A stretch of 64,000 bases of DNA from Phoronis australis (lineage: Eukaryota > Animalia > Phoronida), in assembly GCA_002633005.1 (NCBI GenBank), contig NMRA01000038.1, positions 386,786 through 450,785 on the forward strand, in the 5' to 3' direction. Both the position numbers and the translations under genes were made by a program. Positions 5,822 through 64,000 of the stretch are shown in pieces. Below the pieces are notes generated by a model that searched no databases, was not told the DNA's origin, and was given only the letters and a program-made list of their open reading frames with translations. How positions within the stretch are numbered: position 1 is the first letter of the stretch; each line of letters starts with the position of its first letter.

Positions 5822-8800
5822 ATGGGAAAGAAGAAACATGGTCTTGGACGTTCTCTTGTAAAGGATCGATTTGGAGGACCCAAGCGAGGGAAATCTAACG
5901 AGTCATTTGTAAGCCCTTTGGTTTAATCAATGAAGAGAATTTGTTTAGGTACTTTAGCCAGCTACGCTGTCGTTGTGCCTGTAGCTGCCTGTGTATGTTC
6001 AGACAACACGTAGCCCCTCGGTTGGCCGGTTAGGCGCTATAATACTTCCCATCATTTTCTGTACGAATTTCGTCCCGTGTATTTTATTGGCAATAAGCCA
6101 AATCCGGTCACCAATTAAAGAGTTTTCACCTCGTCAAAAATACATTCCACACTTAAAAATATCACTCAATATGAATAAGCGTTGCTTTCTTTAGTGGTCC
6201 TTTCTACTTCTACACATATCGTTGATGAAACTTAAATACGAGAATCAAGGTGACTTTGGCGAAGAATTCCAACTCCACTTTTTTGGACACTGTTTGACTT
6301 TTTCACCACGCACGTGATAACCACAAAGTATTTTAACCGAGTCACGTGAGTTTGGCAAAGGTTAGCACAAGACTGAACAAAGCATGTGACGCTGGCGCGT
6401 GACACTTGCAAAATAGCATGGGAAGGTATCAGGTGAAATTTGTAAGATTTGTGCCTCTGGGACTTTTTATTCGTCAACATGCGTGATTTTACGTACTTCC
6501 TCAAAATGGCACCCAGTAAGAGAAACTCCAGCAAAGCGCGACAGATTTTCAACGATTTGTTCAAAGACTTATGGTATGTGTTAATTATGACTCCATGTGC
6601 ATATATGCATGCTTCATTTGATTTTATTTCCTGTATTTTGAAATGAGTAACTTATTGTGAGGATGTACTATTGCCCCTGTATGCCTGCAGCATCCAGGGT
6701 GATGTAATTATCTACGTGTATGTTATGTTATGAAGCCTAGTGAGTAGTGTCAATGCAGGAAATTTTATTTGGGCCTTGAAATTTCTAACCGCCCTGGTAG
6801 TTCTGTTTGTCACCTCATTGTGAAACATTTATCAACATGTAGTTGGTGGTGGCAATTCCCAATCCATGCTTTACGCATCAAAAAGATAACAAATCTGCAA
6901 ATGACAATTGGCCACAGACGTCTTCAGCTTCTCTGTCTGTTCTGATTGTCCCCAATACACTATATATGTACTACAAGGTATGACACTCGAGATTAGGAAT
7001 CCCACAGGTGCTCCACTTCAGCTGTTCGTATCAAACACAAATCTCAATAAATTTACGCAAAACGAGTTCAACAAGCCATGAGCAATTGTTCTTTCTTCTG
7101 ATAGTATAAACAGCATCCTGCTCCAGTGATTGCAACAAATTAGTGCTCAAAACACAAAAATCCGATGCGTCACATTAATCACAATGGATATGGTAAGTTC
7201 TTCTGGAAGTCTCACTGAAGATTTTTCAGATAAATGACAGTTCAAATATCACTCAATCCTGGCAATAGAGACGCAGTCGCCACCTAAAATTTTCCTGTAG
7301 AGGACTGTCTGGGTCTGTGATGTCCTCGTATTTACCAACAAATTCACTGTAGCATTCCTTCATCATGTCTCTGTCTTTTCAAGTTGCACACCAGCGAACT
7401 GGAGGATGGCTATGATTGGGGCAGACTCAACTTACAGTCAGTCACTGAACAAAGTCAACTGGATGAATTTCTGTCCACAGCAGAATTGGCTGGCACAGAA
7501 TTTACAGCCGGTGAGGATTTCACACGTTTACTGTATTGCCGCGCCATTAGGCTCATGGGCTTCTGTGCAAAACTGCAATTTTATGCGAAATTTAGGCACA
7601 TATGCCAATATGTGAACCACTTGGTTAAAAAAAGGCTGCGAAGAATGAATTTTTACGGATATAGGCCCATGGGCGTTAAGTTACGATAATATGGAGTACA
7701 TAACTATTTACCAAAAAAATGTCAAAAATCAAATTATGTAGACTTTTTACTTTCAGAAATATATACTTCTTACTGACTTAAAATCTATAGTTTTTATAGA
7801 TATTTGGCTATATATACAGAGTCTGACTTGTTGACAAGCTCCTACGTAAGATGAATACTTCTCTTTTCACCAGACATAAGCTTAAGTGTACTTTGTGATT
7901 GTCAGCTTGCATTGCTCAAAGTTGAACGTAACAATTTTCAGTGCGCAGTGAGTTGATCGGGTGATGTAGCCATCTTATGTTCGATAGTTCAGTTGTTCTC
8001 TCATTATTCCTCTAAGTTTGCTGGGAGATGAGAACGGTTAGCATTCAGCAGCTCTACAATTTCGCACATTCGTGCACCTGTGATTATTTGCTTTCATCTA
8101 TATTTTACCCTCCTTTTAATGCGCGCATCATTTGATGAAGGACATTTTGACTTTCCGTTTTCATTTCGCACATCACAGGCGAATTTATATCTTTAATTAT
8201 CATGTGTATGCATTCAGCAACAGTCAATTTTGTTGTTGGCAGATTAAACTCATAAAATAACGATTAACGAAAATTCTGATCTTGAATAGCTAATCACATC
8301 CATGACTACATCTCATCTCACTGGGTTCTCTGTCAGTCATCCTTCTTCACGCCGATGCCCTCTATTAGTGTATTTTTTTACTTTACAGAGAAGCTGAATG
8401 TGACCTTTGTGAACCCTGAAGTTGGTGCGGGACTGTTGTCGTCAGAGGAGCTGAAACATGTTGAAAAGCTGCATGAGGAGCACAGAGACCTACTTTGTAT
8501 ACCGAGGCGGTAAGTCAACATTGCATTTTGAATAGAGTCTTTTTATATTCATAACATACATGCCCAGAAGCATGCAAAGTTGGCATGAGCACACGAGACC
8601 TAGCGTGGGTGTAGTCGAAGGAGCATTGATTGCTATGGGTCCGTGTACTTAGATGAAAGTGACTGCTTGTATGACAAAATATCTGTAAAATTCTCCTGAC
8701 TACTGGGTGGGTGGGCGGGACTTTTGTTGTGTGTTTGTGTGCAGATGTCGACTTGAAAATGTGTGTGGGGGTTTTACGCAACACCATAGCGTCTGGCACA

Positions 8801-14800: not shown

Positions 14801-17800
14801 ACTCAGCACCATTTCCATTAGCTTAGCCTTCTCCTCTTGTTATAGGCCATCCCTACGCCTTACACTGTGCTTGTGATGCGGTAACAATTTTTCAATTTGG
14901 GACAAAAATAATTGCTAAAATTGCCATATTTCTACTTTTGGAGACTTACCACATTATTACAAATGCTCAAAATATTACCTAATATTTTCTGTTATACAAT
15001 CCATGATAAAAGCAACGTAAATTTTTCTGAAAAGTTATCTTTGTTGAGAAATTTGACAAAATGAAAATTCGCCTATTGAAGAATTTTTACCATAAGTTGT
15101 GTCTATTCAACGCCTGCTTGGAAGATGTTACTTTACAGCAACCTAGGTTGATTAGTGTTGAAAAGTTCGCTCATTTAAAATGAATAAATTGTTCTGATTG
15201 TGGTTGTTAAAACTATTTCACACTTCTAGAATGCAAGTACATTTTAAATGAAACTCGTTTGTTGTCACTTGGTAGCGTAAATATCTGTGTTCAGTTAAGT
15301 GAAAGTTAACAACAAGTAAGACACTTCTGCTGGCCTTCATATTGACGATGCAATTTTTGAAGTGGTGGAGGCTAGAATTTCTTTATTCAAATTTAAAATT
15401 TTTATTTGGCAAAAAAGATTTGAATATAGATCTTTGCATTGTTTTTTCAAAGTTAAATTCCTTAACTGACAGTTACGTTTGCCAAAGAATACCTCGGAGA
15501 ACTTTGGAAGTTGTATACGGCATCAATATCCCCAAGCCTCTGGAAGGAGAAGACGGGAGTCGACCGCCAACTGCAAATGAGCTTCTTAATACCTATGGCT
15601 GTAAGTATCCGAAGTCATGAAGTTAGAAAGACTAATGTGAAGTTTCTTGAGAGTCGACTGTGTCTGTGTTGTTTATGTTGTGAAGCGTGACTTCCGGTTG
15701 TGACGAAACGTACAGTCAGATAAAGCCTCTCTAAGTCACTTGCCAAGTGGCAATTGCCTCTTGGTCGAATGGTTTAGATGCTTGAGTGTCGCTCGTGCAA
15801 CGTGGGTTCGAGTCTCACGGGAGACGGAAATTTTCTACATTGGCGCCCAATGTTTCACCGTGTTTGAGGGTAAAGGTGTGATAAAACTCACCACATTAGA
15901 CAATTTGACTGCTTTTCGCCTCTTTCTGGGCTAAGCTTCATTACTCGTAAATTATACTTTCTAAAATGAAATTCGAAATATAATTTATAAAAATTGAATG
16001 CGTGTATTATTTTATTGTCATTGTCCTTATTGTGTTATGTCATTAATCCTGTTTAAAGTAATCTTTGTTTTGAAAAATTTTCGAAATAATCTTAGAGACA
16101 CATCTCATTATCCAGGTTTTTTACTTTAAGTTTGTTTCCTCATGTTATAGATATGCGGGGCTACATGACAGCTCGTGGCGTTCCTGACTGCCCTAGAACT
16201 GCACGTTACATTCTGAAAGACTACGTCAATGTAAGTTTGAGGGATTTAAAAGAAAACTGTTCATCAGTTCTTATCTGTGCTCGGAACCTGATTCATCATT
16301 AAGCTAGTGTATTTTGAATGAGATGTAGGTCTCTGTGAGATGATAATCTTTTAGTATGCCTTGAAAACGGAATACGTAACGTTTATCACTTTGGCTCTCA
16401 CAAGAAAATAATTGGAATGTTGATAAAGATCTCTACCTAAACAGACTTTATTGTTGCTGTGACGCTATATTTTTTGATCCAGCAAAGTTGTGACTCAACA
16501 CAGAGTTGAATCCCGGTTACTTCGGTTATCTGCAATTCCAAAAATGTATACAAAATATTTGCATTTGTCCAAAATATGCTTTTTCAGGGCAAGTTGCTGT
16601 TCTGCAACCCGCCACCTGGTGTTTCAGAACAGGAGTTCCAGTCTGTGCAAGTGCTGCTGCCTAGGCGACCAGTACAAAAGAAACAAAAACAGCAGACGTC
16701 AGTCCCAGAACAGATGGAACCTCTAACAAGCTCTATAGATGAAGAATTCTTCAGCCAGGTGCTTATTGTCCCTGTGGATCTGGATGTCTCTCGTCTAATC
16801 ATTAACTAGTTGCCACGTGAACACGTAGTTTTCGTTCGGTTACGTTGGTTACATTTTGCTCTCGGTTGTTGGAGATCTTCCTGTTCTCTGTATTCATACA
16901 TGACCTGGGGATTGGTATTTCATTGTGTAAAACAAAAAGGCTGACTAGACTACTGAACGCTGATCTGAAAAAATTGATATGGCATTTCGCGACTGAAATG
17001 ACAGTTTGTGATTTGTGAGTTGTTATCAAATTTTATTCAGTTTCAGTAAAATGCTCTGCTTGGGGTAAACATGGAACAATTGGCCTTTGCAATGTTCTCA
17101 ATCAATACATACATTATCAACTCATTAACATACATTATTAAAATTCTTAATGCTTGCGTAATCAAAACGTGTATGACAATGATGTAGCCGTGTTCTGAAT
17201 TAGAGCCGAGTTCTTGGTCCTGTTAAAAGTTCATGGCAGGAAATCCCTTGATAGTGACTAACAGAATAATAAAACCAAATTTTCAACTTCCATGCTAAGA
17301 ACGCGCATCTGTATGAGTTACAGTGGTCTCTGAAAAAAATCAGTTTTGTGGAAAAATTGTTCAAATGTCTACAAATGGATTAGGGTTATTTTTTGTGCAC
17401 ATGATATGTGTCATTGATCATAAGAATGTTAAAGAGGCACGTTTTCTTGGGTTGAAAATTAGACACAAAGTGTTTAAAAACAAGTCAAAAATATTTGTTT
17501 CTTGGTAACGGAGGTTGTTGGTTACTTTGAAATTCCGTTTGTCAATTGAGATCTATGTTCAGTTGCTGAATACTGCCTGAACTTCAATTGTTATTCATTG
17601 CCACACATTGAGTTAATTAAGCAGTGGAAATCTGTCCAATTTCCTTTTCATTCAATGCTTATTATGACTAGCAAAATGGCTGCCACGAAAATGATTGGGC
17701 GACCATGATGGAATGTTGAACTGTGGGAGACAATTTTTTATTTCTGTTCCCTAAACCAAGATTTCTCGCAGTATGTGTCTCATATTGCCAGCAGTGTCAC

Positions 17801-22683: not shown

Positions 22684-25600
22684 TCAGTAAAATGTAGTGT
22701 AATGTAGTAACGGTCTTTCGAATGTGTGTTCCATCTCATGTAAGATCTCATCAATGTCATTGTCAAGGTCATCCGATTCTTTGAACTGCAATAACGACAA
22801 AAGTTTAAACTGTAGTACATTTTGGTTATGTAGGACCCTAGGAACTTGTCCAAATTTGGTTAACTTCAAAAAATTTTAGAAATAGCTCATTGGATTCATA
22901 TGACAGAGATTCTGTGCTTTATGCATTTTTCTCTAAAACACCATTAGGAATTGTTGTTAAAATGTTCCACTTCTCCACAAGTGGTTAACAAGAACAGGAC
23001 TTGTATGATTTTTATGAAAGAATTCGAAATTTGCATAAACAAAATGACAACTTAGAAAACTGTTACAGAGTTTTTGAGATTCCACCTTAAACAATTTTAT
23101 CAAACAAAATTTGGTCATGTTATTGATACTATTATTTTGCTAAGAATGTACCTTTCTTTTTCCTAAATTTCATTAAAACATTTAAAGGGTTTTCTCTTTT
23201 ACCAAGTTAAAGTCTCTCAAGGAGGCAGTGTGGCCTGGTTGATAAGTGCCCGCTTTCTTTACTTGAGGTCGTGGGATCGAGTCCCACTGGGCACACTGCT
23301 AGACCCCTGAGTCAGGTTTCTAGCTCCTCAGCTCGGTTTTAACTATATATTAATAAAGCACAAAAATAGTTCCAGGTGATTAGTGCAATGGGTCCACATG
23401 TGCGACCTGCGCACCTCTGGTACAACATGTATCAGAATGCCGGCAATTACTTTTATTGTTAAGTTAAAATCTATAATTTTGTTGATATCTACCTGTCAGT
23501 AAGGTCCTACATAACTTTCAAAATGAAAAAAATAGTTTCAACTACTTTATGTCAGTGACAGTACCTCTTCGAAAATAACACAATTCACAACTGAAAATGT
23601 TCAATTGACAAGCTTACTCCACAATAAAAATCATGGGCGACGGTTGTGTTTTAACTCACGGGAGGTTTGAAAACAAGTTTGCTCCATATACTGCGTCTTA
23701 TGTTATCTTGGTCGACTCCAGCACCTCCCACATATGTTAAACTGTGTACAAAGATAACATTAATATAACACCCAACCTATAATGCTAAGCTACCACTAAG
23801 AATCTCAGACAAACAGTTCTACATACAAGAAAAACAATTTTGATAAGAAAAAGCTCTCTGCACAGATCAGCTGTTGAAATGTCACTTCACAAGCAGCTTG
23901 CCCCATCATCACATTTACAATAGGAATATACCTTAGTGCACAATTCCCGGATGAAGACCGCTCCTAAAGTGGCATCCTCATGGTTATCCTTGATGTCCAC
24001 ATTGACTATGTGTACAGACTGGATGATATCCTTGTCACGCGCTTCTAAGCCTGTTGGCAGATTAGCAATGAAGAAGCTTTTCGTGTATACAATAACTTTG
24101 TATCAAGCATTTTAAAGAACTTTTTATCTCCTCATTCCCATTCTTGGTCGAAAATTCTGAAAAGAGCTCACCAAACACATGGTCCTCAAGTTCTATAAAT
24201 GCTCAGGATAACCATCATTGTGGCACAGGTGTCAGGTGCTGAGATTGGCATCATCCCAAGTTTGAACATGGTCAGTACAGTTCTCGGATGCTCAGGCTAG
24301 TATCACTAGATTCAATATGGTCAGGCTAGTATCACTAGATTCAATATGGTCAGGCTAGTATCACTAGATTCAATATGGTCAGGCTAGTATCACTAGATTC
24401 AATATGGTCAGGCTAGTATCACTAGATTCAATATGGTCAGGCTAGTATCACTAGATTCAATATGGTCAGTACAATCACACGGGCATCACGATGTGTATCT
24501 AGGAATTAAGCCCCTCCCACAAGACCAAAGCAACTGCAATTAAAGCTGCCACAAACCACCTTCTGTCAGATTTAGACCACTCACTGTCAATTGGTCTCAA
24601 TATGTTCCTTAATGGAATGGAATCTTGATTTGTGGTCTTGGGATTAACACACCATGCTCAATGCATAAAAAGTCCCGTCATGTCAAGACGACCCTTAACC
24701 TGCAATAGGTGAGGTCAGCCAACATGCCAATTATCCTATTACAATTGGTTGGGTGTACTCAATCGACTATAACAAGCTGCAGCTGGGCTGCGCTAGGAGA
24801 GTGCACTCACCCCAGGACACTTGTGATTTTCATTCAGAAATTGTAAGAGTCCTAGAATGTTGTTTAAATATGTGAGCATGGGCATTGCATAGTTCACAGT
24901 TTCCTCTACATTTCTTTGATTTAAACCATATGGCTGTGATTACTAGTTTGGGAGATATTGGCAGGTTTATGTGAGTGTAGACATATAGTTTCATTATATG
25001 GCTGAAGCCAGAGGTCACAGGAAGACAATGGATCAGTTTACTTTTACTTTCGCTAAGGCTATGATGAAGATTTACATATGGTGAAAATCTCCATTAAATT
25101 CTGGAAAACTTTTATGTTGGCTTCTTTTATGTGAAATTAACATTTCCCCTTCAAATTTCCAATTTAAAATTGTTAGGTCGTTAGTCTGGGTGACCTTCAT
25201 AACAGCTTACTGTACAGCAGTAGTGGTGACCTACTTTAGCTCAGCACACAGGGAAAGTAGTCTGAATAGAAGCTCAACAGAACAAGGGTTCATGACCTTG
25301 CGGTCAAGCAACAGCCCATCAAGACCCAATTAAAGACCAGTTTTCATAACAGTAAATGTTGTATTATATATATATATTGAAAGACATTCCTTAACGGCAG
25401 GTGAGTTTAATGTAGCCTTAATAACAGACGTTACAGTGAGCAATTCAGAAAAATCTACACTTACATTCAACAACTTGATCGTAGACACGCTCTTCGCAGG
25501 TGATAATAATGTTGAACCTGTCTTTGCAGCTCTGGAACCTCTCCGGCCTCAACTTGATTCTTTTATTGCGCTCCAACATATGTAGTATACCATTTTGTGT

Positions 25601-34600: not shown

Positions 34601-36814
34601 TTACTGAAAAATAAATACAGTAAAATGAAGTCAGTTCTCCACTACACGCCTTGAATGGCATGTGACGTGGATTGACGGGAAAAATTACAATTACAAGACA
34701 AAAGACTAAGTACGATATGGCGACTTGTAGGTTACCAATGCAAACTCAGATTTTGTTTGGCGACCTGGTCATCACGCACACATGCAAGCATGCACTCAAA
34801 TCGTTTGACAAAACCACAAGGGCCAGTTCACACGCTCTTGTATAGAAGATGTGCCCCAATCATCAGCTTCTCCCTACGTAAGCAGGCAAACCCGAGCGGG
34901 GATGTTGGAACAGAGAGGAAACCTGTTTGACCAAATGGCTGTCTTGATTAACCTGCTGGCAATTTGCTAGGTTCGACTGTTACTCAACTCAGGACTGTGG
35001 TTTCATAAAAAGTGACTTTAAGACTTGGTCCGAAATTTGGTCTCGCATTCCACACAACTGCGTTGCTGAGATAATTTCTAGAAATAATTTGAAGACTGTT
35101 ATGCACATACATTATATAATTACATGGCAAAATCTTTTTGTAGCAACTGTGAAGTGAGAGCGTAAGATCGAATTTCAGTCCCAAGTCTTCACAAAACAGA
35201 CTCCAGGTATCTATTTTTTATTGGCAGCTGTTGCCAACTATGTGTCGTTCATAGGTGCCAGCACTTTTCATAAACGGTTTTCTTGCTTTGGCTCCCTAAT
35301 TTCCTATTCGGCAACCTTGTTACCAGGGTACTTAATTCAAAATCACAGATGTCTGAACTTGAAATTGAATATTCAGTAAAAAAAAAACAGTGCAGGTGGT
35401 CTGATGTCATTTGCGGTGCATCAGAAGTGCGCAGGCCTCATGGTTGGGCCCATTGCACAAAACACCTGAGCAAAGGCACAAGACCCCAATGATGGCTCCT
35501 CGTGAAGAAAGCTTTCAAGTCTGCCAGTCTCCTTTAGGAAAACGGACAGACAATTCCATTTGTTGCCATGCACTATATGTTGTAGGCATGTAACAATGCC
35601 ATCCAGTAGGTTGCTCCTTAGCCTATAAAAAGCTGGGCAAGACTCTACCAGGTGTTTAGGAGATTCTACGTCAGTACCACACTCGGGACACACAGGGCTC
35701 CCCATATGCCCAGTAATGTGTCTGTGTCGGGCTAGGTTGCAGTGGCCCGTCAAAATTTGAATGACGTGTCTTATACCCAATTTCCTATTCGGCAACCTTG
35801 TTACCAGGGTACTTAATCTCAAAATCACGGATGTCTGAACTTGAAATTGAATATTCAGTAAGACAATCAGGTGAAATTTTTTGATCATTGAACAGAATAT
35901 TTGCAGTTATTAGCCTCATGATCACCAGTTTTCTCCAAAACCTTAATTTGTGTCACAGAATAAATGTTCTTGCTACTTTATTTTTTGTTTGATGAATAAG
36001 ATCACCAATAGTTGAAAAGAGGTTGATTAAAATTTACATTGTTTTATTAACAAGTAATTTGTTTTAGTGCAGTGCAAATATTTATCAATGTGAGCGGAAT
36101 TATTTGAGTGAACTTTCCAAATTTCATGGTGTATTCCAAATTCACACATACGTGATCTTGAGATTAAGCAGGATTCCAAGTTCACGCACAGCAATATGGC
36201 ACTGTTTACTTCCAAGGGCAAAGGCAGATAAACATGACAGGTAGCTGGTAGGTCACATGCACACTACTCAGCTACTCATACAACGGCCCTTCCGATTTTT
36301 GCCAAATGATTCCGACTACTGTCTGTTTACTTCCAGTATGCTGTAATATTTTAAATGTGTGCTCTGATCTGTGCATCAGTGAGTCAGTAATGTGAACGTG
36401 ATTGGAATTCAGGTTCCATGCCATGACCATGGTAACAGTAACGGGCATAATTGCAAAGTAAGAATTTTTGCAGTGTGTGGCAAGTTAGTTTCCACCTCCG
36501 TCCGCCACTAATTGAGCGTCATCTATGCAATCTCAGAATGTCAGATGAAAACGGCCTCACACTTGTCACGATTGACACATTAGAAAGCGCCCCCTCGTGT
36601 CAGTTTCAGATGTAAACAAAACATAATGACTTAAACGCCGGGAATAAGCTTACAAGTGAATTTGCAGTTTCTTGAACTCTGTTTCGTTACTAAGATCAGG
36701 TAACAGTGTATACCACTCTAAACCAAGAGACAACTACCTGAGAAAACTGTGGGCTTCCATACTTCTGTTTTGATTACTTGAGCAGATAACGGCAATCTTC
36801 AACTCGTCTGACAT
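22684..36814 (-). CDS. SSU72: RNA polymerase II CTD phosphatase SSU72, 193 aa, 5 coding exons
   Basis: Exons 36814-36738, 34603-34460, 25604-25465, 24050-23932, 22785-22684 (77+144+140+119+102=582 nt) give [45 protein letters not shown]...YTQNGILHMLERNKRIKLRPERFQ...ITCEERVYDQVVE...VHIVNVDIKDNHEDATLGA...ERPLLHYTTFY, with the catalytic CX5R motif (CSSNQNR) intact. Confidence 0.97.
22845..23185 (+). repeat. Dispersed repeat (old transposon fragment) with other copies at ~48375-48840 and ~7720-7810
   Basis: Shared blocks TGTCCAAATTTGG, GATTTTTATGAAA and ATCAAACAAAATTTGGTCATGT between 22845-23185 and 48375-48700; 48750-48840 matches 7720-7810 (TTAAAATCTATAGTTTT.TAGATATTTGGCT). Confidence 0.7.
23221..23457 (+). 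mobile_element. tRNA-derived SINE, family A (second copy)
   Basis: GGCAGTGTGGCCTGGTTG (A box) ... GGATCGAGTCCCACTGGG (B box); colinear with the copy at 4215-4458. Confidence 0.8.
24292..24469. repeat. 29-bp minisatellite (TCAGGCTAGTATCACTAGATTCAATATGG) x6
   Basis: Six identical units in SSU72 intron 3. Confidence 0.95.
25583..25746. repeat. 82-bp tandem duplication spanning the SSU72 intron 2 / exon 3 boundary
   Basis: 25583-25664 and 25665-25746 are identical except one base (TTTGCA vs TTTGTA). Confidence 0.95.
26616..27420. mobile_element. PIF/Harbinger-type MITE
   Basis: TIRs GGGCTGTTCCAGTAAAATCCGTGTGGGAGGGGGG / CCCCCCTCCCATACAGATTTTGCTGGAACAGCCC with a 3-bp TAA duplication on both sides. 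Confidence 0.85.
29300..30010. repeat. Old inverted-repeat element with a perfect central palindrome
   Basis: Perfect 22-bp arms 29569-29590/29592-29613; degenerate outer inverted matches (AATGGCAATTTTTTAATTCCAGG vs CCTGCAATAAAAATGCCATT). Outer limits approximate. Confidence 0.6.
30160..30400. mobile_element. hAT-like non-autonomous element copy (same family as 10163-10389)
   Basis: Starts AGGCTTGGAATGA; the reverse complement aligns with 10170-10389 (AAGAGGAAATTGAAACCAAAAAAGA.GAAAT..TCTTAAAAGAGGAAAATTCC). Confidence 0.7.
35298..35861 (-). mobile_element. 5'-truncated LINE (I/R1/LOA-like) 3' end with CCHC zinc knuckle, flanked by ~82-bp direct repeats
   Basis: Minus ORF reads ILTGHCNLARH...SPVCPECGTDVESPKHLVESCPAF (LTGH + CX2CX8HX4C of LINE ORF2 C-termini); direct repeats at 35298-35379 and 35779-35861. 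Confidence 0.85.
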
Positions 36815-40549: not shown

Positions 40550-40723
40550 CTTGCTATAGGTCAATTGTTTGTTACTTGGAACCAAAGAAACTATATCAGA
40601 AAGTCTTGATGTAATCAAAAAGTTATATCTGCCCTGATTCCTCAACCACTTCGTTACATCCTTTAGTTAAAGACAATTTATGCTCAATTTCAGAATCGGA
40701 AGCGTTGACAAAAGCCTGCTACA

Positions 40724-43700
40724 ATGGCGACGTCATTCAACGTCAACTATCAGCCGAGGCCGCGGTTCTTCTATACGCCTCAGTTCCAGCAAAACCAGCC
40801 ATTTCAGCCCCGCATGCCCATGGTGAACCGATTCCCTGGTTATATACCACGGCCGCGCTTCGCCCAACCCCCCATGCAGTCACAGCCCGGGGGCGAGGGA
40901 CTGGATGGTAAACGAATGCGCAAGTCGCTTCACAGAAAGACAGTAGATTACAACAGTTCTGTAATTAGGTATTTAGAAGTAAGTAAAATTGTCATTTGGC
41001 CAGTAGAGTGCTCCGTATGTGAAATATGTTATATGTTGTGTGTAAGTCGTCACATTCAGTCACCAGGTGGCAAGACCAGCTTGAGCACGAGTTTGCTTAC
41101 TAAAAACTGCCAAATAACATCGTGGAAATCGATTACATTTCTTGTGTCTGCCAAAAAGTAGTTTGGCAAAGAACCATTGTAAATCAAGATTAAAAACTTG
41201 TGAAACGTTCGATAGATTATTGGTAGTGAATGTTCCATTACGAAATGCGAAATTATCACGTGGGTGAATGCGACTAAGAACATAGAAATAATTTACTACA
41301 ATGGCATTGCTATTCACTACTTGCACACTTTGGTACTAGTGCTGTACAAATACTGTTGTGTTTTGTTTTTTAGGACACAATGCCTCTTTTCGTTTACAAT
41401 TTTAACAGCGCAAGCGTGAAAGTGCATATGTTCCAAACATAACCATTGCACACAACACCTCATCTTTCTTTATGTATCTTACTAAATTTCCATTTTCCTA
41501 TTGCATTTCTGCTCCCAAAATCAGGTTGCTTAAGTGACTGGTTAATCACTCATCACTATAACAGTTGACTGGGAAACTCTTGCCCAGGCTGGGAAACCCT
41601 AATGCTGGAAAAGCCCTCAAAATTCTTAGCTTATTGTATAAGGGAAGCAGCGGAAATGAAGCCCACTTATCAACATCATCAATGGACACTTTTGGTGTTT
41701 GATATTACAAGATGGCCTAACATTTTTTTAATGTAGTCACATTGTATGTTGTAACTGTGGAGATAACTCTATTACTAAGTTAATACATTGGTTCACGAAG
41801 TCAATGAAGTCACATTGGTTTTGACATGTGAGATTTGGGGCCACAACAGACTAATAGCTACGGCCTGAGCTGTCTCGTCTTGAGATGAGTGGTCAGCTCA
41901 GGTATGATTCACTTGAGGAATGTACTGCAGCTCGTGGCTATCTGTCTGCTGTGGCATATTTATTGGCAACGAGGAACATTCGATTTGTTGCTGTTCTCTT
42001 TTCTGATCTAGTTTGAGGCTTTCGTAACTTCTTTGTAATAGGCTAAAATTTGGATTTGTGTTATCAGTTATTAATGCTTTGTAGGTTTGTTTATAGAATG
42101 GACTTGACATGTTCTTTTATCTGTTTCAGAACCGTATTTGGCAGCGAGATTATAGGGATAAGCATGTCATTCAACCAGATCCTGTGTATATTCCTGAGGT
42201 GAGTATGTTTTGGTGTGGAGGATATCACAATTGAATGTAAAGTTCGTGTAATGGATTATTTATTGCCTGGAGAAGCATATTGCTGTCTCTGACCCAGCAT
42301 TTTAATTAGCGTTTTGCATTGTTTTTATCGAAAGTACAAATCACCAGTTTAAGCTGCGTTTCTTCCTGTTTGGCTGGATAAAAAACTACAAAATGGAATT
42401 AGGCTTGTTAGGCACATGAAATCTGTCTCGTATTCCTTACCGTGGTAGGATTCTCTTTCCGTTATCCTAAATGGCCCATGTGTGCACTGTCTGTAACTTG
42501 AATTGGTAATGCAAATAGAATACTTCTCGCAATTGATTCGATCCGTGTTTGTTTTCAGTTGGAGCCTCCAGCAGCTTATCGCCACAATGTCGTGAACTGT
42601 GTTCCAACCAAGTTTGTTCGACAGTCCACCAACAAAATGAGATGTCCCATATTTTGTCTTGCTGTAAGTAGAATGTTCTAGCACCTTTTGATGTGCTTGC
42701 TAGACGTTGTGTTCGCATATTGCTGTACGTCGGTCATTTTCTTTCCTTGTTTGTTGAAATTATCAGGACTCGCTGGGATGGATTTTAATGAAGCGTGACA
42801 ATACTTTATAGATGGGCTAGTTGATCACTGGACAGTTTATTTGTCGATTATTGTCAAAACAGCTTGACAGATTTTGATGAAACTTGAAAGGGTTAATGAC
42901 TGGAATGCACCAGCAGCAATTGATTTTCAGCTTTTGTATATCACATGTATAAACAATCCTATGGGCAGTTGTAGGTGCTCTTGTTATCTTTTTGTTTCAT
43001 CACATGTTACTTAAAATTTTCATGTGTTGAAGCAAAAAGTTCCATTGTGAAATATTTGCGGATGAAAGAAATTGATTTTGTCCAACAAATTTTGAGATTG
43101 AGTAAGTTATTTACTTCTCAAAACACTCCAAACCCTGCAATTTGTACAGAAATTTGATTTGCATCACTGAATTGTAAAGCCTGATGTTTGCTTCACTTTT
43201 GTATTCAACGGATCTCTTCATTTCCAGTGGACACCAGAGGGCAGACGTCTAGTCACTGGTGCGTCAAGTGGGGAGTTTACCTTGTGGAACGGGTTAACCT
43301 TTAACTTTGAAACTATATTACAGGTAATGGAATCTAAGTACAAAGTTCTTCTTTTTAACAATGGGCCTTTACTTGTACTTTTGGTGGTTTCATGGCTTTG
43401 TCATATACTATAGACAGGAAGTGTTTTTTATGGTTTCATGGCTTGGACATATACTATAGACAGGAAGTGCTTTTGATGGTTTCATGGCTGGGGCATATAC
43501 TATAGACAGGAAGTTGTGTGTTACATTATGTGCTTAAAGTAACATCACAGTAAATATAATAAAAACAGTAACGTTTCCTCAAATGTCGACAATTTTTTTT
43601 TCAAATTTTCAAAATGGTCAAAATTTCATGTGTTTGGTGTTAGTTTGTCTTAATCTTTATTTTTGGAGAAATTTAGCATTATAGATTGTCACGTGTCAAA

Positions 43701-46700
43701 AAATTTCTATGCCATACAGGGCTCGACATAAGCAAATAAATGTTCAAAAACACGGGTGGAAAAGGTAAAATACAAGTAGTAAATTGCCCTCAACTCCTTA
43801 AGATCATAGAGGGGTTTTTTTTATCGCCACTTTCCACAAGCCCAAACACAAGTGGCAAATGTGCCGTCGCGCGTATTTCACGCGGACATTCTCTCCTGCA
43901 TCGAGCACTGCCATATCTTTGGCTGAAGAAAGACCATTGTAGACTATGAGCTGAACTGCGTCTCTTTGTCTGCGTTACAGGCTCATGATAGTGCAATTCG
44001 TGCCATGGTGTGGGGCCACAGTGACCACTGGATGATCACGGGTGACCACAGCGGCTACCTCAAGTATTGGCAGTCAAATATGAACAACGTCAAAATGTTT
44101 CCTGCTCATCCCGAAGCGATCCGTGGCCTAAGGTGGGCATTGACCGACGACGACTACTTTGACCTCGGCGGTCAGCTGTGTAGAGTCGCTGCTCAGTTCG
44201 TTTGTATTGTTGTTTTACTTAATAGTACTTTGGTCTGTTCATTTATATTCACGTTCTATGGTATCAGATCTGGTTTTAGTCCCTGTTGGCTTTTCTAAGA
44301 ATTTTTCTGTGTACAATAAAGATGATTCGTTGGGTTACCTACAGACATAAAATATACGAAAATACACACTGTAACACACACAAGGAGTACAAATTGACCA
44401 TACATTTGTCATACACTATTGTTGCGCATTCGAACATCAAAAATGCGATGTTTTTCTGACTCGAGTGACATTGACAGTTATGCATTTAAATATGTCTAAG
44501 GTTATTTTAATCCTTTATTGACATAAGAAGCAGACAAATACCAAATGTATTTGTTTGAATGTGAAGAAAAATGGTGAGAAATGCAGGCTTCCACGAGACC
44601 CATTTCATTATTCATATTGAGGTCTACCCACATTCTTCATATCAATTGCATGCATCACACAAAAGCAACAATTATCCACTCCACATCATCAAGTCCATGC
44701 TTTCTTTGTGCTCGTCTCTGATAGTCAATGTTTTGTTAAAGTTGTTTTGTTATTTTTAGCTATTATGGTATTAAAGCTAGAGGCTTGAATAAATAAAAAC
44801 AGAAGCCTTGAAATCGGGTAGTGAAACTGTGATATATACATATTTTGTTTAATAAAGTAAAACTGTTTTAAAAGGAATGCATATATTTAAGGAGCAAAGT
44901 TAACAATATTTTTTAAAGATTTAACTCTTTAGTTGTTTGTTATTTGACTGGAGATGTTTCGCTACATCGAATAAATTTTATTGAAAAACAAAAATCTTGT
45001 TTTTCTTTAAAATTACTATAGCAACTTTTACTGGTAACGCTTTTAACATTAGAAATATGAAACAGATTTTTGTTTCCTGTTGTTGAATTAGCTTGCTATC
45101 CTTTATCCTTCAACAGTTTTTGCCCAAGTGATGCTAAATTTGCATCTTGCGGAGATGACGGCACAGTTCGTTTGTGGGATTTTGTTACATGTCAAGAAGA
45201 GAAAGTACTTAGAGGTATGAAATATTCCATAGTCTCTACTTGGGACACTTTTCATGCAATTTTTGCTTTTGTGGTGGTTGTAGTCTAGGTCACCAAGCAA
45301 GGCAAATCTGTGATAGTTTTAAAGCGAAGTAATAGTAAACAGTTTTAATAGCAGGTTGAAAATTCATTTTTGTAGCTCACCATTCCAGAGTCAGTGTTGC
45401 ACATTTTCTTTGACAAAATCTTTGCCGCACATAAACTGAATATTTTGTTAATAACTACTGTACCATTTTGCACCATCAAGCAGAGGTCAAATTTACGTGA
45501 CTTTTGTTGAAACATAAAACTTCATGGTAGAGATTAGTACATATGGGGTTTTATTTGAATGGGTGTGTTCTGTGATGCTACTCGTCAGTTAAGCCAATAG
45601 AATCGCATTCTTCACTTTAAGACATGGCAATATTTCACGAAAGGTGATTCTGACCAACTGTCAAGATACTTGCCTTGCCAAACACACCTATTGTTAACTC
45701 TCGTGAAGGCAAATTGTAAGAAATCAGATTGGTGGTGTTAGTTGCAGATAAACCCCATTTTGGGACCCATTTCAAGTAGTACACTGCTGAGCATGCGTGG
45801 TATTCGTCTTCTGGGCTTTGTTCCGTTGTATTTCGGATTTTTCTGGTTCTTTATGGCTCGTGAATATTTGAACTCTGACCGTGTTTTGATCGGTTGACTA
45901 CCCTACCCAGGTCACGGCGCGGACGTCAAGTGTGTCGACTGGCACCCCCACAAGGCTCTTTTGGCTTCAGGAAGCAAGGACAGCCAGCAACCCATTAAAC
46001 TGTGGGACCCCAAGTCTGGTCAGGGTCTGGCCACCATGTAAGTGTTAATTACTTGAACGGAATTGTAGATCAAAACAAATAAATTCTTTTCATTAAAATG
46101 CAGCAGATTTGCAAATTTTGTAAGCACATGCGGTAGGTCCGTCCTTGATTGAACTCGTCTAGTAGAGATTGAAAAGTACATTGCATGACTGACCAACTCT
46201 TTAAAATGTCAAGGACTCCCGAGTTAGTTAACACAGAAATACATTGTGTATGTAATATTATTTCATTGGTAAGCATACACTAACTAGTGCGTTTTATCTT
46301 AGATTCAGTCAGATTATCTTCACATGTAACCACATGCGGTATTTTCAGACAAATAAAGCATGGTATTATCTAGTAATACTGGGCATCAAAGTCAATGCAA
46401 AGCAACCATTTCAGATTGAGTTGGAAATTGCTATTTTTGAACGGACTCGCAAAGTGTCGATTTCGACAACGTATTGTATGGCAGTTCTAATTGAACCAAG
46501 TCGTGGGGGAGTCGATCTCGCTACCTAGTGACTATCCAATACTGATATTTGCCTTTTTTGCCAATTTCATGATGCAAGCATTGCAGTTGTAATACAAGTT
46601 TGCCAGCATTGAAACGATGAATCTCATAATATTAAGATATGAGATAATGACTATTGCATTACCATGTGAAAACAAGTGCTTGACACGTGTGTTGCATTGT

Positions 46701-52700: not shown

Positions 52701-55700
52701 AAATTGGTCTTAAATTAATGGCTAATCAAATTCAATGATGTTCCTGGGCCTGGAAATAACTGATTGTTCATTATTACTCGAGGTCGGGTTCTACAAGTTG
52801 ACTTGTCACAGCGTGTCATCGATTTTACTTGGTATCGAGAAATAGCTTTGTGCAAGGCCATAAATGAGTTCTTAATTGAACAAAGAACACGTTGAGTCAA
52901 TTTTAGAGTGGTTAGAGGTCTTAATCGGAAGTTGGGTTTTTTTTAGGCGTATGAATACATTTATTACGTAAACACAATACAAATTATGGTAAAATACACA
53001 TAAACAACATACACATATATACACATACGCACACCTAAACACACATGCAGGCACAAGTTGCCCTTCTTATTTCTGTTATGGTTTACTTTCATACACTTCC
53101 CATTTTTCTTGAAAAGGCTGCAAACAGAGATTCTGTTTTGCCAAGTACTTTTGTGTTTCATAATAGTTAAATACCAGCGTGTTTAATGCTACAATGCTCA
53201 AATTTCCAAAATTTTGTTGATATAATTCTACTGACAATTCTTAACTGTAACGATCAGTTTTGTGTCCTTTCTCACACAATAAGTTGGTTTCTGCGAGGGA
53301 ACACGGGTATACTTAAGCCGCTTTAAGTTTCAACATTTTATGAAGATGACTAGTTGTTGTGTTGACATATTTCTGAAACACAATATTGATGCTATATGTG
53401 ATTTTGATGCAAACTTTGCAATTAAATTGATTTTAAAATATTATTTTCATTTAAATGTGACAGAGAGTATGAAGCCAATCAGCATCCCTGCGTTTTATCG
53501 TCATCATCTACAAAAATTATACATTTGGTTGTACTCAGCTCAGGAGACTGAATATGTTTGTTGTCAGCATAAATCAACTCGCATATTCAGTTTTAATGAG
53601 ATGGTCACTTGAACTCACACTCACTCACGTCGTTTCAGAGAAGGATAGTGCTGGATCCATACCCGGCCTGTCTTGGTCGGATGACGTACACGAACTGAAG
53701 CAGATTCAGGTGGAGAACATCAAGTCACGCATGAAGGTTCCCAAGGCCAAACCTGTACCCAAGTCATTCCAAGACGCCTGGTCCAGTGGCATCACCGTTG
53801 AACCAGGAAGTACGTAGACATCACTGTAGTTTTCGGTGGGGAGACAAACGCTTTCATATGGCAAAGTCTCTAGCCACCAAACCGTACTCATTCCACCTAG
53901 ATCTCAGTGCGAATCTATGTTTCAGATTTGTGAATGCAAAAGTATCAATGACGCCTAAATCACTTTTTTTACAAGAATGTGAAACCATTTTCAGAGCTGA
54001 AGTTCAAGCTGGTTGTGAAGTTGGTTTACAACAACTAATTAATTACCAAAGTATACTAATAGGAGTAAGTAAAGTCCTGTGTACGCTGACAAACTTGTAT
54101 GCTAACTCAATTCACAAGTTTTCAAGCAACTAGTTTTCCAATTTGCTTATGGCGTGTTTCTTGCGACTTTGATGAGGTCACATAAGTCAGGCAAAGATAT
54201 AAATGAAATCGTGTTCCAAGCAGTATGTGATTGAACTAGCTTTCACTTGTGACTGGCTATCATCAGTTAACACATGCTATGCTTGTGTCACTTGTGACTG
54301 GCTATCATCAGTTAACACATGCCATGCTTGTTTCACTTGTGACTGGCTATCATCAGTTAACACATGCCATGCTTGTGTCACTTGTGACTGGCTATCATCA
54401 GTTAACACATGCCATGCTTGTGTCACTTGTGACTGGCTATCATCAGTTAACACATGCCATGCTTGTGTCACTTGTGACTGGCTATCATCAGTTAACACAT
54501 GCCATGCTTGTGTCACTTGTGACTGGCTATCATCAGTTAACACATGCCATGCTTGTGTCACTTGTGACTGGCTATCATCAGTTAACACATGCCATGCTTG
54601 TGTCACTTGTGACTGGCTATCATCAGTTAACACATGCCATGCTTGTGTCACTTGTGACTGGCTATCATCAGTTAACACATGCCATGCTTGTGTCACTTGT
54701 GACTGGCTATCATCAGTTAACACATGCCATGCTTGTGTCACTTGTGACTGGCTATCATCAGTTAACACATGCCATGCTTGTGTCACTTGTGACTGGCTAT
54801 CATCAGTTAACACATGCCATGCTTGTGTCACTTGTGACTGGCTATCATCAGTTAACACATGCCATGCTTGTGTCACTTGTGACTGGCTATCATCAGTTAA
54901 CACATGCCATGCTTGTGTCACTTGTGACTGGCTATCATCAGTTAACACATGCCATGCTTGTGTCACTTGTGACTGGCTATCATCAGTTAACACATGCCAT
55001 GCTTGTGTCACTTGTGACTGGCTATCATCAGTTAACACATGCCATGCTTGTGTCACTTGTGACTGGCTATCATCAGTTAACACATGCCATGCTTGTGTCA
55101 CTTGTGACTGGCTATCATCAGTTAACACATGCCATGCTTGTGTCACTTGTGACTGGCTATCATCAGTTAACACATGCCATGCTTGTGTCACTTGTGACTG
55201 GCTATCATCAGTTAACACATGCCATGCTTGTGTCACTTGTGACTGGCTATCATCAGTTAACACATGCCATGCTTGTGTCACTTGTGACTGGCTATCATCA
55301 GTTAACACATGCCATGCTTGTGTCACTTGTGACTGGCTATCATCAGTTAACACATGCCATGCTTGTNCTGGTTATCGGGCATGATTTGGGCCGTAAAAGT
55401 TTCGGCGTTTTTTGTCATTGGTCATTCCAAGCCCTGAAGTCCTCTGAGCCCGAGATCTCTACTGTCAAAAATCACGACCTCAACTTTCCATGAAAAGTTC
55501 GGAAGTCTTGATTTTTGATAACCAAATTCTCAGGATCAAAGGCCTTAAAACATCCAAGACACCGTTTGTTGGCTAATGGACCAAATAAACAGAATTTATG
55601 AAAAAAACGACACATGTGGAAGTTAAAGCAAATCCAACTTATCTGATGGGCTAGAACAACTGTGCCACAGAATTTTGTACTTGTCTAGTTGAAGCAGCTT

Positions 55701-58170: not shown

Positions 58171-58433
58171 AATGAGGACGGGTCCCAATATCTACACAAG
58201 GCTCAACACCTCTCAAAATGGTAAATTTGTCAAGCTCACTGTTTACAAGGTGTGCACAATGAGGACGGATCCCCATATCTACACAAGGCTCAACACCTCT
58301 CAAAATGGTAAATTTGTCAAGCTCACTGTTTACAAGGTGTGCACAATGAGGACGGGTCCCCATATCTACACAAGGCTCAACACCTCTCAAAATGGTAAAT
58401 TTGTCAAGCTCACTGTTTACAAGGTGTGCACAA
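58171..58433. repeat. 87-bp tandem repeat x3
   Basis: Three near-identical units starting AATGAGGACGG at 58171, 58258 and 58345. Confidence 0.95.
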
Positions 58434-58927
58434 TATGACAAAATCATTAACACCAATAGTTATTGGAGCAAAACAAAATCTCATGAGAAGTTCAACAATG
58501 CAAAATATGACTTAGTCACCTGGAATTTACAAAGACTAGGTAAATTGAAGACACTGAGTATTAATTTAAATGCATTAATTTTCAATACACATGCCATTTC
58601 AATTTCACAACAACAGGTCAATAGATTAGTCACCAAATGGTGATAACATTTTGTATAAAAGGTTCCAAAACTACTGAACTTGGCAACAGAATGCAAAGCT
58701 CATTCGATACTTGAGCACTTGCCCAAAAACCTTGAAATTATTCACCTTCACAGCAATTCCTAGTTGAAAAAAACCTTTGATCTTGGTGACCTCACAAGAA
58801 GACAATAACATCGTACATCTTGCAGTCTTTACATCAGGGAATGGTTCGAAACAAAATACGGTAATGAGTGATTTGAGGAAAGAAACCTAGAATTGTCACA
58901 ATTGGAATGTTAACAATTAAGATAATC

Positions 58928-63153: not shown

Positions 63154-63394
63154 CTGAAAAATGCAACCTCAAAAATGTTCACAGGATGTAGGCCTTGGCC
63201 CGTTATACAATACCATTTTACAATGACAAAAGTTCAGCTCTCAGCACAGTTGCTCTTGAAATGTAGAATGCAGGCTTTTTAGTTCACAGAGATAGTGCCG
63301 GGCTTTGAAATAAGAGCTAACTACAACTCTTGCATTATCGTCAATAAATTTTGGCACACATCACTCAGGAAAGTGAAGTGACACAAAAAATGAA

Positions 63395-64000
63395 GACCAC
63401 TTGCTGTTATGAAATTGGGTCTCAACTTCGTCCTTAGTCAAAACAATGTTTCTAGACCACTTGTTGTTATGAAATTGGTCTCAAATTGGTCCTTAGTCAA
63501 AACAATGTTTGTAGACCACTTGCTGTTATGAAATCGGTCTCAAATTGGTCCTTAGTCAAAACAATGTTTCTAGACCACTTGCTATTGTGAAATTGGTCTC
63601 AAATTGGTCCTTAGTCAAAACAATGTTTCTAGACCACTTGTTATTATGAAATTGGTCTCAAATTGCCCTTAGTCAAAACAATGTTTCTAGACCACTTGCT
63701 GTTATGAAATTGGTCTCAAATTGCCCTTAGTCAAAACAATGTTTCTAGACCACTTGCTGTTATGAAATTGGTCTCAAATTGCCCTTAGTCAAAACAATGT
63801 TTCTAGACCACTTGCTATTATGAAATTGGTCTTAAATTGCCCTTAGTTAAAACAATGTTTATAGACCACTTGCTGCTATGAAATTGGTCTCAACTTGATC
63901 CTTAGTCAAAACAATGTTTCTAGACCACTTGCTGTTATGAAATTGGTCTCAAATTGCCCTTAGTCAAAACAATGTTTCTAGACCACTTGCTGTTATGAAA
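63395..64000. repeat. 58-bp satellite, >=10 copies, running off the window end
   Basis: Unit GACCACTTGCTGTTATGAAATTGGTCTCAAATTGCCCTTAGTCAAAACAATGTTTCTA with a few substitutions per copy. Confidence 0.95.

Follow-up and report, generated by a model that had tools for sequence, protein, structure and literature searches.

The window, a 64,000-nucleotide stretch of Phoronis australis DNA in which all positions below are numbered, carries the gene for WDR33, the protein that reads the mRNA end signal AAUAAA. The exon at 43981–44132 matched residues 159–217 of human WDR33 in solved structures (E 2.5e-23), and full-length WDR33 homologues aligned exon by exon across 40.8–53.8 kb of the window (tblastn). 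On the plus strand, coding exons 1 (40724–40978, opening with the ATG at 40724), 2 (42130–42198), 3 (42559–42663) and 4 (43228–43323, the first WD repeat) are common to a long and a short isoform; they were delimited by RNA joints and, for exon 1, by tblastn and the joint 40978–42130, seen in all four RNA data sets (X1–X4, described below). Exon 5 (43981–44132; human residues 159–208, from RNA joints and alignment) encodes the second WD repeat and the start of the third, and exon 6 (45117–45214), also bounded by RNA joints, belongs to the long form only. Four upstream introns confirmed by RNA joints make 43981–44132 coding exon 5. An acceptor-like site at 40693/40694, at which a piece of an X1 contig begins (40693–40723), suggests an upstream non-coding exon before 40724, in which case the intron after exon 5 (the focal intron) would be number 6, as in human.

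Elsewhere in the window, a later WDR33 intron holds an array in which a 45-bp unit is repeated 25 times with 99% likeness and three frames stay open (54243–55366), and further arrays lie at 43378–43514 (three copies of 46 bp), 58171–58434 (three of 87 bp), 24292–24469 and 63394–64000. Exon-like frames at 7321–7686 and 15303–15617 (+) presumably resemble the ribosome-export GTPase LSG1, and a 161-codon open frame at 35424–35906 (−) encodes what we take to resemble the C terminus of a protein from a non-LTR retrotransposon. No second copy of the focal intron was found within the window. An ESM Atlas lookup returned only generic WD40 fragments, with recognition below threshold.

Exon 5 ends at a phase-2 donor, AAG|GTGGGC (44130–44138), which is the splice site of the long form and matches the consensus at 5 of 9 positions, the lowest score among the seven WDR33 donors compared and in keeping with the weakness first ascribed to it. 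When this donor is read through, the frame stays open to a TAA at 44296–44298, giving an intron-encoded C-terminal tail of 55 codons including the junction codon (44131–44298). The coordinates of the original prediction all proved exact: the exon at 43981–44132, the AAG|GTGGGC donor, 54 open codons, the TAA, a TGTA at 44310 and an AATAAA at 44315. Counted from the start codon at 40724, the short form encodes 280 aa and, by exon alignment to human, keeps two WD repeats, as had been proposed for a product of about 280 residues with an incomplete propeller. The focal intron measures 984 nt; six other WDR33 introns range from 360 to 1649 nt.

RNA evidence came from a contig set (X1) and three stranded raw RNA-seq runs of one study (X2–X4), of which about 18–19% each was read; with 72–85 reads per run on the 1500 nt considered, counts are low. 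Seven GT..AG joints were present in RNA, including 44132–45117 of the long form (17 spliced reads; 4, 7 and 6 in the three raw runs). Sense reads also crossed the exon-5 donor, covered 44133–44350 in all three raw runs, the interval in which the original prediction called for reads, and continued to ~44870 in X4 and ~44955 in X2 and X3; depth was zero over 45001–45100 in X2, X3 and X4. Sense depth over 44151–44850 was 7.5, 6.9 and 11.4, compared with 6.0, 7.2 and 9.2 in exon 6, giving a short-form share of 0.56, 0.49 and 0.55 at these low counts. In X1, a 634-nt contig has four GT..AG introns spliced out and then continues to 44277, within the tail, and a 367-nt contig covers part of the intronic 3′ untranslated region, with a gap between the two. 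An early-ending, intron-extended WDR33 RNA exists and is abundant: the long and short forms occur in about equal amounts, and the short RNA ends inside the intron.

Full intron retention was ruled out by the zero depth over 45001–45100 and by the lack in X2–X4 of any unspliced read over 45051–45116 running through the acceptor into exon 6. The short form is a terminal exon extending into the intron, not whole-intron retention. The intronic reads might instead stem from RNA whose splicing was incomplete, or from oligo-dT that primed on an A-rich run (44983–44995) that lies directly beyond the end of coverage. Library selection is recorded as ‘unspecified’, a hairpin at 44974–45014 could hinder reverse transcription, and the ends listed for the four RNA sets include neither a loose end with poly(A) nor a read-end cluster. 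However, a precursor would yield reads over 45051–45116 into exon 6, and none is present; the libraries are stranded, and the other WDR33 introns are near zero depth except for short, low-identity repeat hits; coverage in X4 stops ~100 nt before the A-rich run; there are four AATAAA hexamers in the intron; and, across animals, transcripts or annotated isoforms show the same read-through. We therefore consider such an origin of the reads very improbable.

Those four AATAAA hexamers in 984 nt compare with five in the 5077 nt of six other introns. The original prediction had ended the short RNA at the proximal AATAAA (44310–44320 with its TGTA) and had missed AATAAA at 44788, 44851 and 44970 and ATTAAA at 44770. 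In this respect it did not hold, although its central idea, an intronic-polyadenylation isoform, agrees with an intron-extended RNA ending inside the intron. As the main poly(A) signal, 44315 was rejected: depth was 10.3, 3.4 and 11.2 before it (44151–44300) and 6.3, 7.6 and 11.8 after it (44351–44850), with no overall drop in the three raw runs. It is at most a minor end, for which a depth dip at 44400–44500 in X2 and X4, together with the gap between the X1 contigs, leaves room. Its TGTA stands one base from the hexamer; the available text of PMC11445923 calls a TGTA ~20 nt upstream of the hexamer ‘appropriately positioned’. The AATAAA at 44788, 44851 and 44970 fit the end of the short RNA better. 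Depth falls over 44751–44900, spanning the ATTAAA at 44770 and the AATAAA at 44788 and 44851 (44770–44856), where X4 ends, and reads in X2 and X3 end at ~44955, ahead of the last AATAAA (44970–44975), the likely distal signal. Because the listed ends include no poly(A) loose end or cluster, cleavage sites are placed by the positions of these hexamers. The 3′ untranslated region of the short form (44299–44955) was seen over ~570–660 nt, from sense depth in X2–X4 and the 367-nt contig in X1, and the 3′ end of the intron (45001–45116) is absent from the RNA.

The last 200 nt of the intron (44920–45116, +) fold at z −3.8, a value matched by none of 200 shuffles. The 16-bp AU-rich hairpin at 44974–45014 begins inside the last AATAAA, and a second hairpin, at ~45031–45098, stands directly ahead of the acceptor; these hairpins could affect cleavage or splicing. 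No array of hairpins with AUAAA loops was found, as none of six ATAAA sites in the intron folds beyond z −1.2.

The function of this arrangement could lie in the RNA event itself, with the weak donor and the poly(A) signals in the intron acting as a feedback brake on full-length WDR33 and the tail as a by-product, since T-rich intron sequence tends to read as hydrophobic residues once a frame is open. This is possible, but we think it the less probable account of the locus, and it can hold together with a membrane-protein reading, either as a rival or as an added layer. Frame length alone is unremarkable: across the nine other WDR33 introns, 129 of 6346 sense intronic starts have an open frame of at least 54 codons, and read-through into intron 1 stays open for 60. 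The Kyte–Doolittle peak of the tail is 2.32, but by-product tails would be expected to be hydrophobic too, and read-through after three of six other WDR33 donors gives 1.81, 2.0 and 1.92, so that Kyte–Doolittle hydrophobicity alone is weak evidence. The tail nevertheless makes a better insertion segment than chance gives. On a Hessa-type insertion scale it scores −0.54 (favourable) as against +2.7, +3.9 and +5.2 for those three other read-throughs; none of the 6346 overlapping intronic starts matched this score, and 56 of 20000 composition shuffles of 44134–44433 did. One transmembrane helix (44197–44253; 19-residue Kyte–Doolittle mean 2.32) is thus predicted on two hydrophobicity scales, in line with the membrane-spanning-like tail first proposed for the 280-aa product, and its predicted position, 14 residues before the C terminus, fits a tail anchor. 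Four sequence variants fall within the tail frame; none introduces a stop or indel, and three of the four change a residue. A homologue search with exon 1 gave 35 candidates, none at E 0.001 and so no close relative.

We compared the junction with that of other animals. Residue 1 of exon 5 aligns with human residue 159, so the tail starts at 209, and its junction codon is that of human WDR33v2, which reads into human intron 6. By this alignment, the focal intron is orthologous to human intron 6 and the short form is of the WDR33v2 type. Phoronid WDR33 is ~62–76% identical to every named animal group fetched. Of the 344 proteins compared, 163 depart from the canonical sequence at the junction codon, 156 splice on and 25 have no pattern match. 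The carriers include mammals (118-aa tails), a bird, a snake, a frog, fishes, Bactrocera, Lygus, Oryctes, Ranatra and Patella. Nearly all diverging proteins (159/163) begin the tail with R, as AG|G requires. With the four tails that do not start with R and two long gene models set aside, 157 R-starting tails of under 300 aa were left; the second residue was Y, F, W, C, L or S, those open to a T-initial codon, in 149, six tails end at R and two have another residue. RW, as in the phoronid tail, begins 33 tails and implies a GTGG donor. A 19-residue Kyte–Doolittle value of at least 1.6 was reached by 116 of the 163 tails and a Hessa-type score of 0 or better by only 35 of the 157, counts that favour long tails because each long tail forms its own cluster. 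Across species, the junction position and the weak donor are conserved, but not the tail sequence, which had no relative among fetched tails of more than 25 residues (best E 0.08).

Some mammalian tails bear on the by-product idea. In the v2 entries P0141, P0152 and P0155, compared with P0157, the distal tail is read in a shifted, also hydrophobic frame (frame-shift scores 38, 18 and 14, against a shuffled maximum of 8), a point in favour of that idea. These entries may, however, be sequence errors rather than real variants, and of the other pairs four have no clear shift and one is borderline.

The donor was further followed in a DNA scan that was not selected on the tail and so escapes most of the bias towards long tails, in which 477 pattern matches yielded 149 confirmed loci, the best 80 of which were kept. 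Within these best 80 of 149, 24 loci start an intron at the junction codon, and in 22 of the 24 the donor is none of GTAA, GTGA and GTAG. A paired control used loci with the upstream donor in view (L001, L002, L046, L064, L066, L077 and L080 were dropped), with two near-copy groups merged and the window added, to give 11 lineages. The consensus donors GTAA, GTGA or GTAG occurred in 2/11 lineages at the focal intron and in 9/11 at the preceding intron, non-consensus donors thus standing at 9/11 and 2/11, respectively (Fisher p 0.009, with lineages that are not independent, from the best 80 of 149 loci). Since the intron is in phase 2, donor bases +2 to +4 are read as the codon that follows, which a consensus donor turns into an instant stop; weakening at +3/+4 opens the frame, so weak splicing and an open frame are a single change. 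As judged from these sequences, the recurring non-consensus donor across animals is what the present comparison adds to published work.

This donor bias speaks for a brake on full-length WDR33, as do loci that combine a weak donor and intronic AATAAA with hardly any tail. L075 has a 507-nt intron (504–1011) with three AATAAA and a tail of only two residues, and the L061 group (L061, L062, L063, L070, L071, L073, L076 and L077) has a ten-residue tail and an AATAAA 167 nt into the intron. L058 does not suit so simple a story: its donor is non-consensus, but its intron is only 68 nt long and lacks AATAAA. In the same set of loci, L056 and L060 have a consensus donor and a 61–64-nt intron without AATAAA, and L022, L028, L031, L032 and L034 depart from the canonical frame nine codons before this point, apparently at another intron position. 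Further points against a brake are the size of the focal intron, which is not large, and the human data. As given in the available text of PMC11019558 (Liu and Manley 2024), human V2 requires its own tail for ER location and STING binding; and in that of PMC11445923 (Liu, Seimiya and Manley 2024), CFIm25 knockdown in HeLa cells lowered V2 by ~30% and left V1 unchanged, and V2 was unaffected by knockdown of FIP1 or CstF64.

On balance, we think it probable that slow splicing competes with intronic polyadenylation and that the outcome is a V2-type mRNA and, by extension, an ER tail-anchored protein with two WD repeats. WDR33 RNA would either splice at the weak exon-5 donor to give the long form or read on and end in the intron, likely through intronic polyadenylation at the AATAAA at 44788, 44851 or 44970. 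Slow U1 pairing at GTGGGC may let 3′-end processing win in about half of transcripts, along the lines of the competition model in the available text of PMC11445923. Translation of the short RNA would give the 280-residue WDR33v2-type protein with its predicted C-terminal membrane helix, presumably unable to close a seven-bladed propeller and anchored in the ER by its tail, the WD part facing the cytosol. Any role of this protein with STING or in autophagy would be by analogy with human work.

A conserved donor with an unconserved tail allows ‘membrane protein’ and ‘feedback brake’ to be tested against each other: animals keep the position and the weak donor but not the tail sequence, and two lineages retain the donor and poly(A) signals almost tailless. 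Tentatively, the ancient conserved element might be a two-base donor choice in a phase-2 intron that both weakens splicing and removes a stop, by which WDR33, itself the AAUAAA reader, would sense and cap its own level through intronic AAUAAA, unrelated membrane tails having arisen or been kept separately on top; were this so, the STING role would be a later co-option. We find this conceivable but would not favour it. As for the V2-type switch itself, reads confirm that its product is a major isoform in one more invertebrate; the comparison extends the range of V2 beyond the two published invertebrates, adding many insects, a limpet and chelicerate-like sequences.

The isoform is not new in kind, having been published in human, Drosophila and Nematostella vectensis. 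The available parts of PMC11019558 describe human WDR33v2 (rat NET14) as residues 1–208 plus a 118-aa tail from intron 6, located in the ER with a role involving STING, which agrees with the account of short human isoforms as ER-membrane proteins affecting STING in the original prediction. They also report V2 homologues in D. melanogaster and N. vectensis, not C. elegans (Results and Fig. S7 legend), so an invertebrate V2 is not new. In a search of the open literature, with subscription papers outside its scope, neither donor–stop coupling nor feedback acting at the intron of WDR33 itself was the subject of any paper. In the available text, ‘autoregulat’ is absent from PMC11019558, PMC11445923 and PMC11331416, ‘feedback’ occurs once in PMC11019558, and PMC10394034 and PMC10664987 contain nothing on WDR33's own intronic site.

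Among autoregulated 3′-end factor genes, the available text of PMC3708835 describes CstF-77 (CSTF3), with a very large intron 3, short RNAs without apparent protein and demonstrated feedback, and PCF11 is reportedly a further case (PMC6428223, PMC6458999). The phoronid locus resembles both in being a 3′-end factor gene with a conserved weak donor, a likely intronic poly(A) site and a composite terminal exon, but its intron, unlike that of CSTF3, is not unusually large (984 nt) and carries a tail frame. With the Drosophila and N. vectensis homologues it shares an invertebrate setting, an origin probably by alternative polyadenylation, a pair of WD repeats and a membrane domain predicted at the C terminus, and it differs in being another species, in which reads support the isoform and place its 3′ end approximately. 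The likeness to human WDR33v2 extends to the intron and junction codon, the two WD repeats, a hydrophobic intron-encoded tail, several poly(A) signals, inefficient splicing of the intron and a similar message share, the phoronid short form about equalling the long one and human V2 being reported as ~50% of V1. PMC11445923 reports inefficient splicing of human intron 6 and several weak poly(A) sites. The phoronid tail has 55 rather than 118 residues, is unrelated in sequence and has one helix near its C terminus; its 3′ untranslated region lies ~600 nt long inside the intron, and the phoronid RNA has no reads of a fully retained intron, a product of human PAS3 and PAS5. ER location and binding to STING and WIPI2 are features of the human protein; its phoronid counterpart is known from RNA and prediction.
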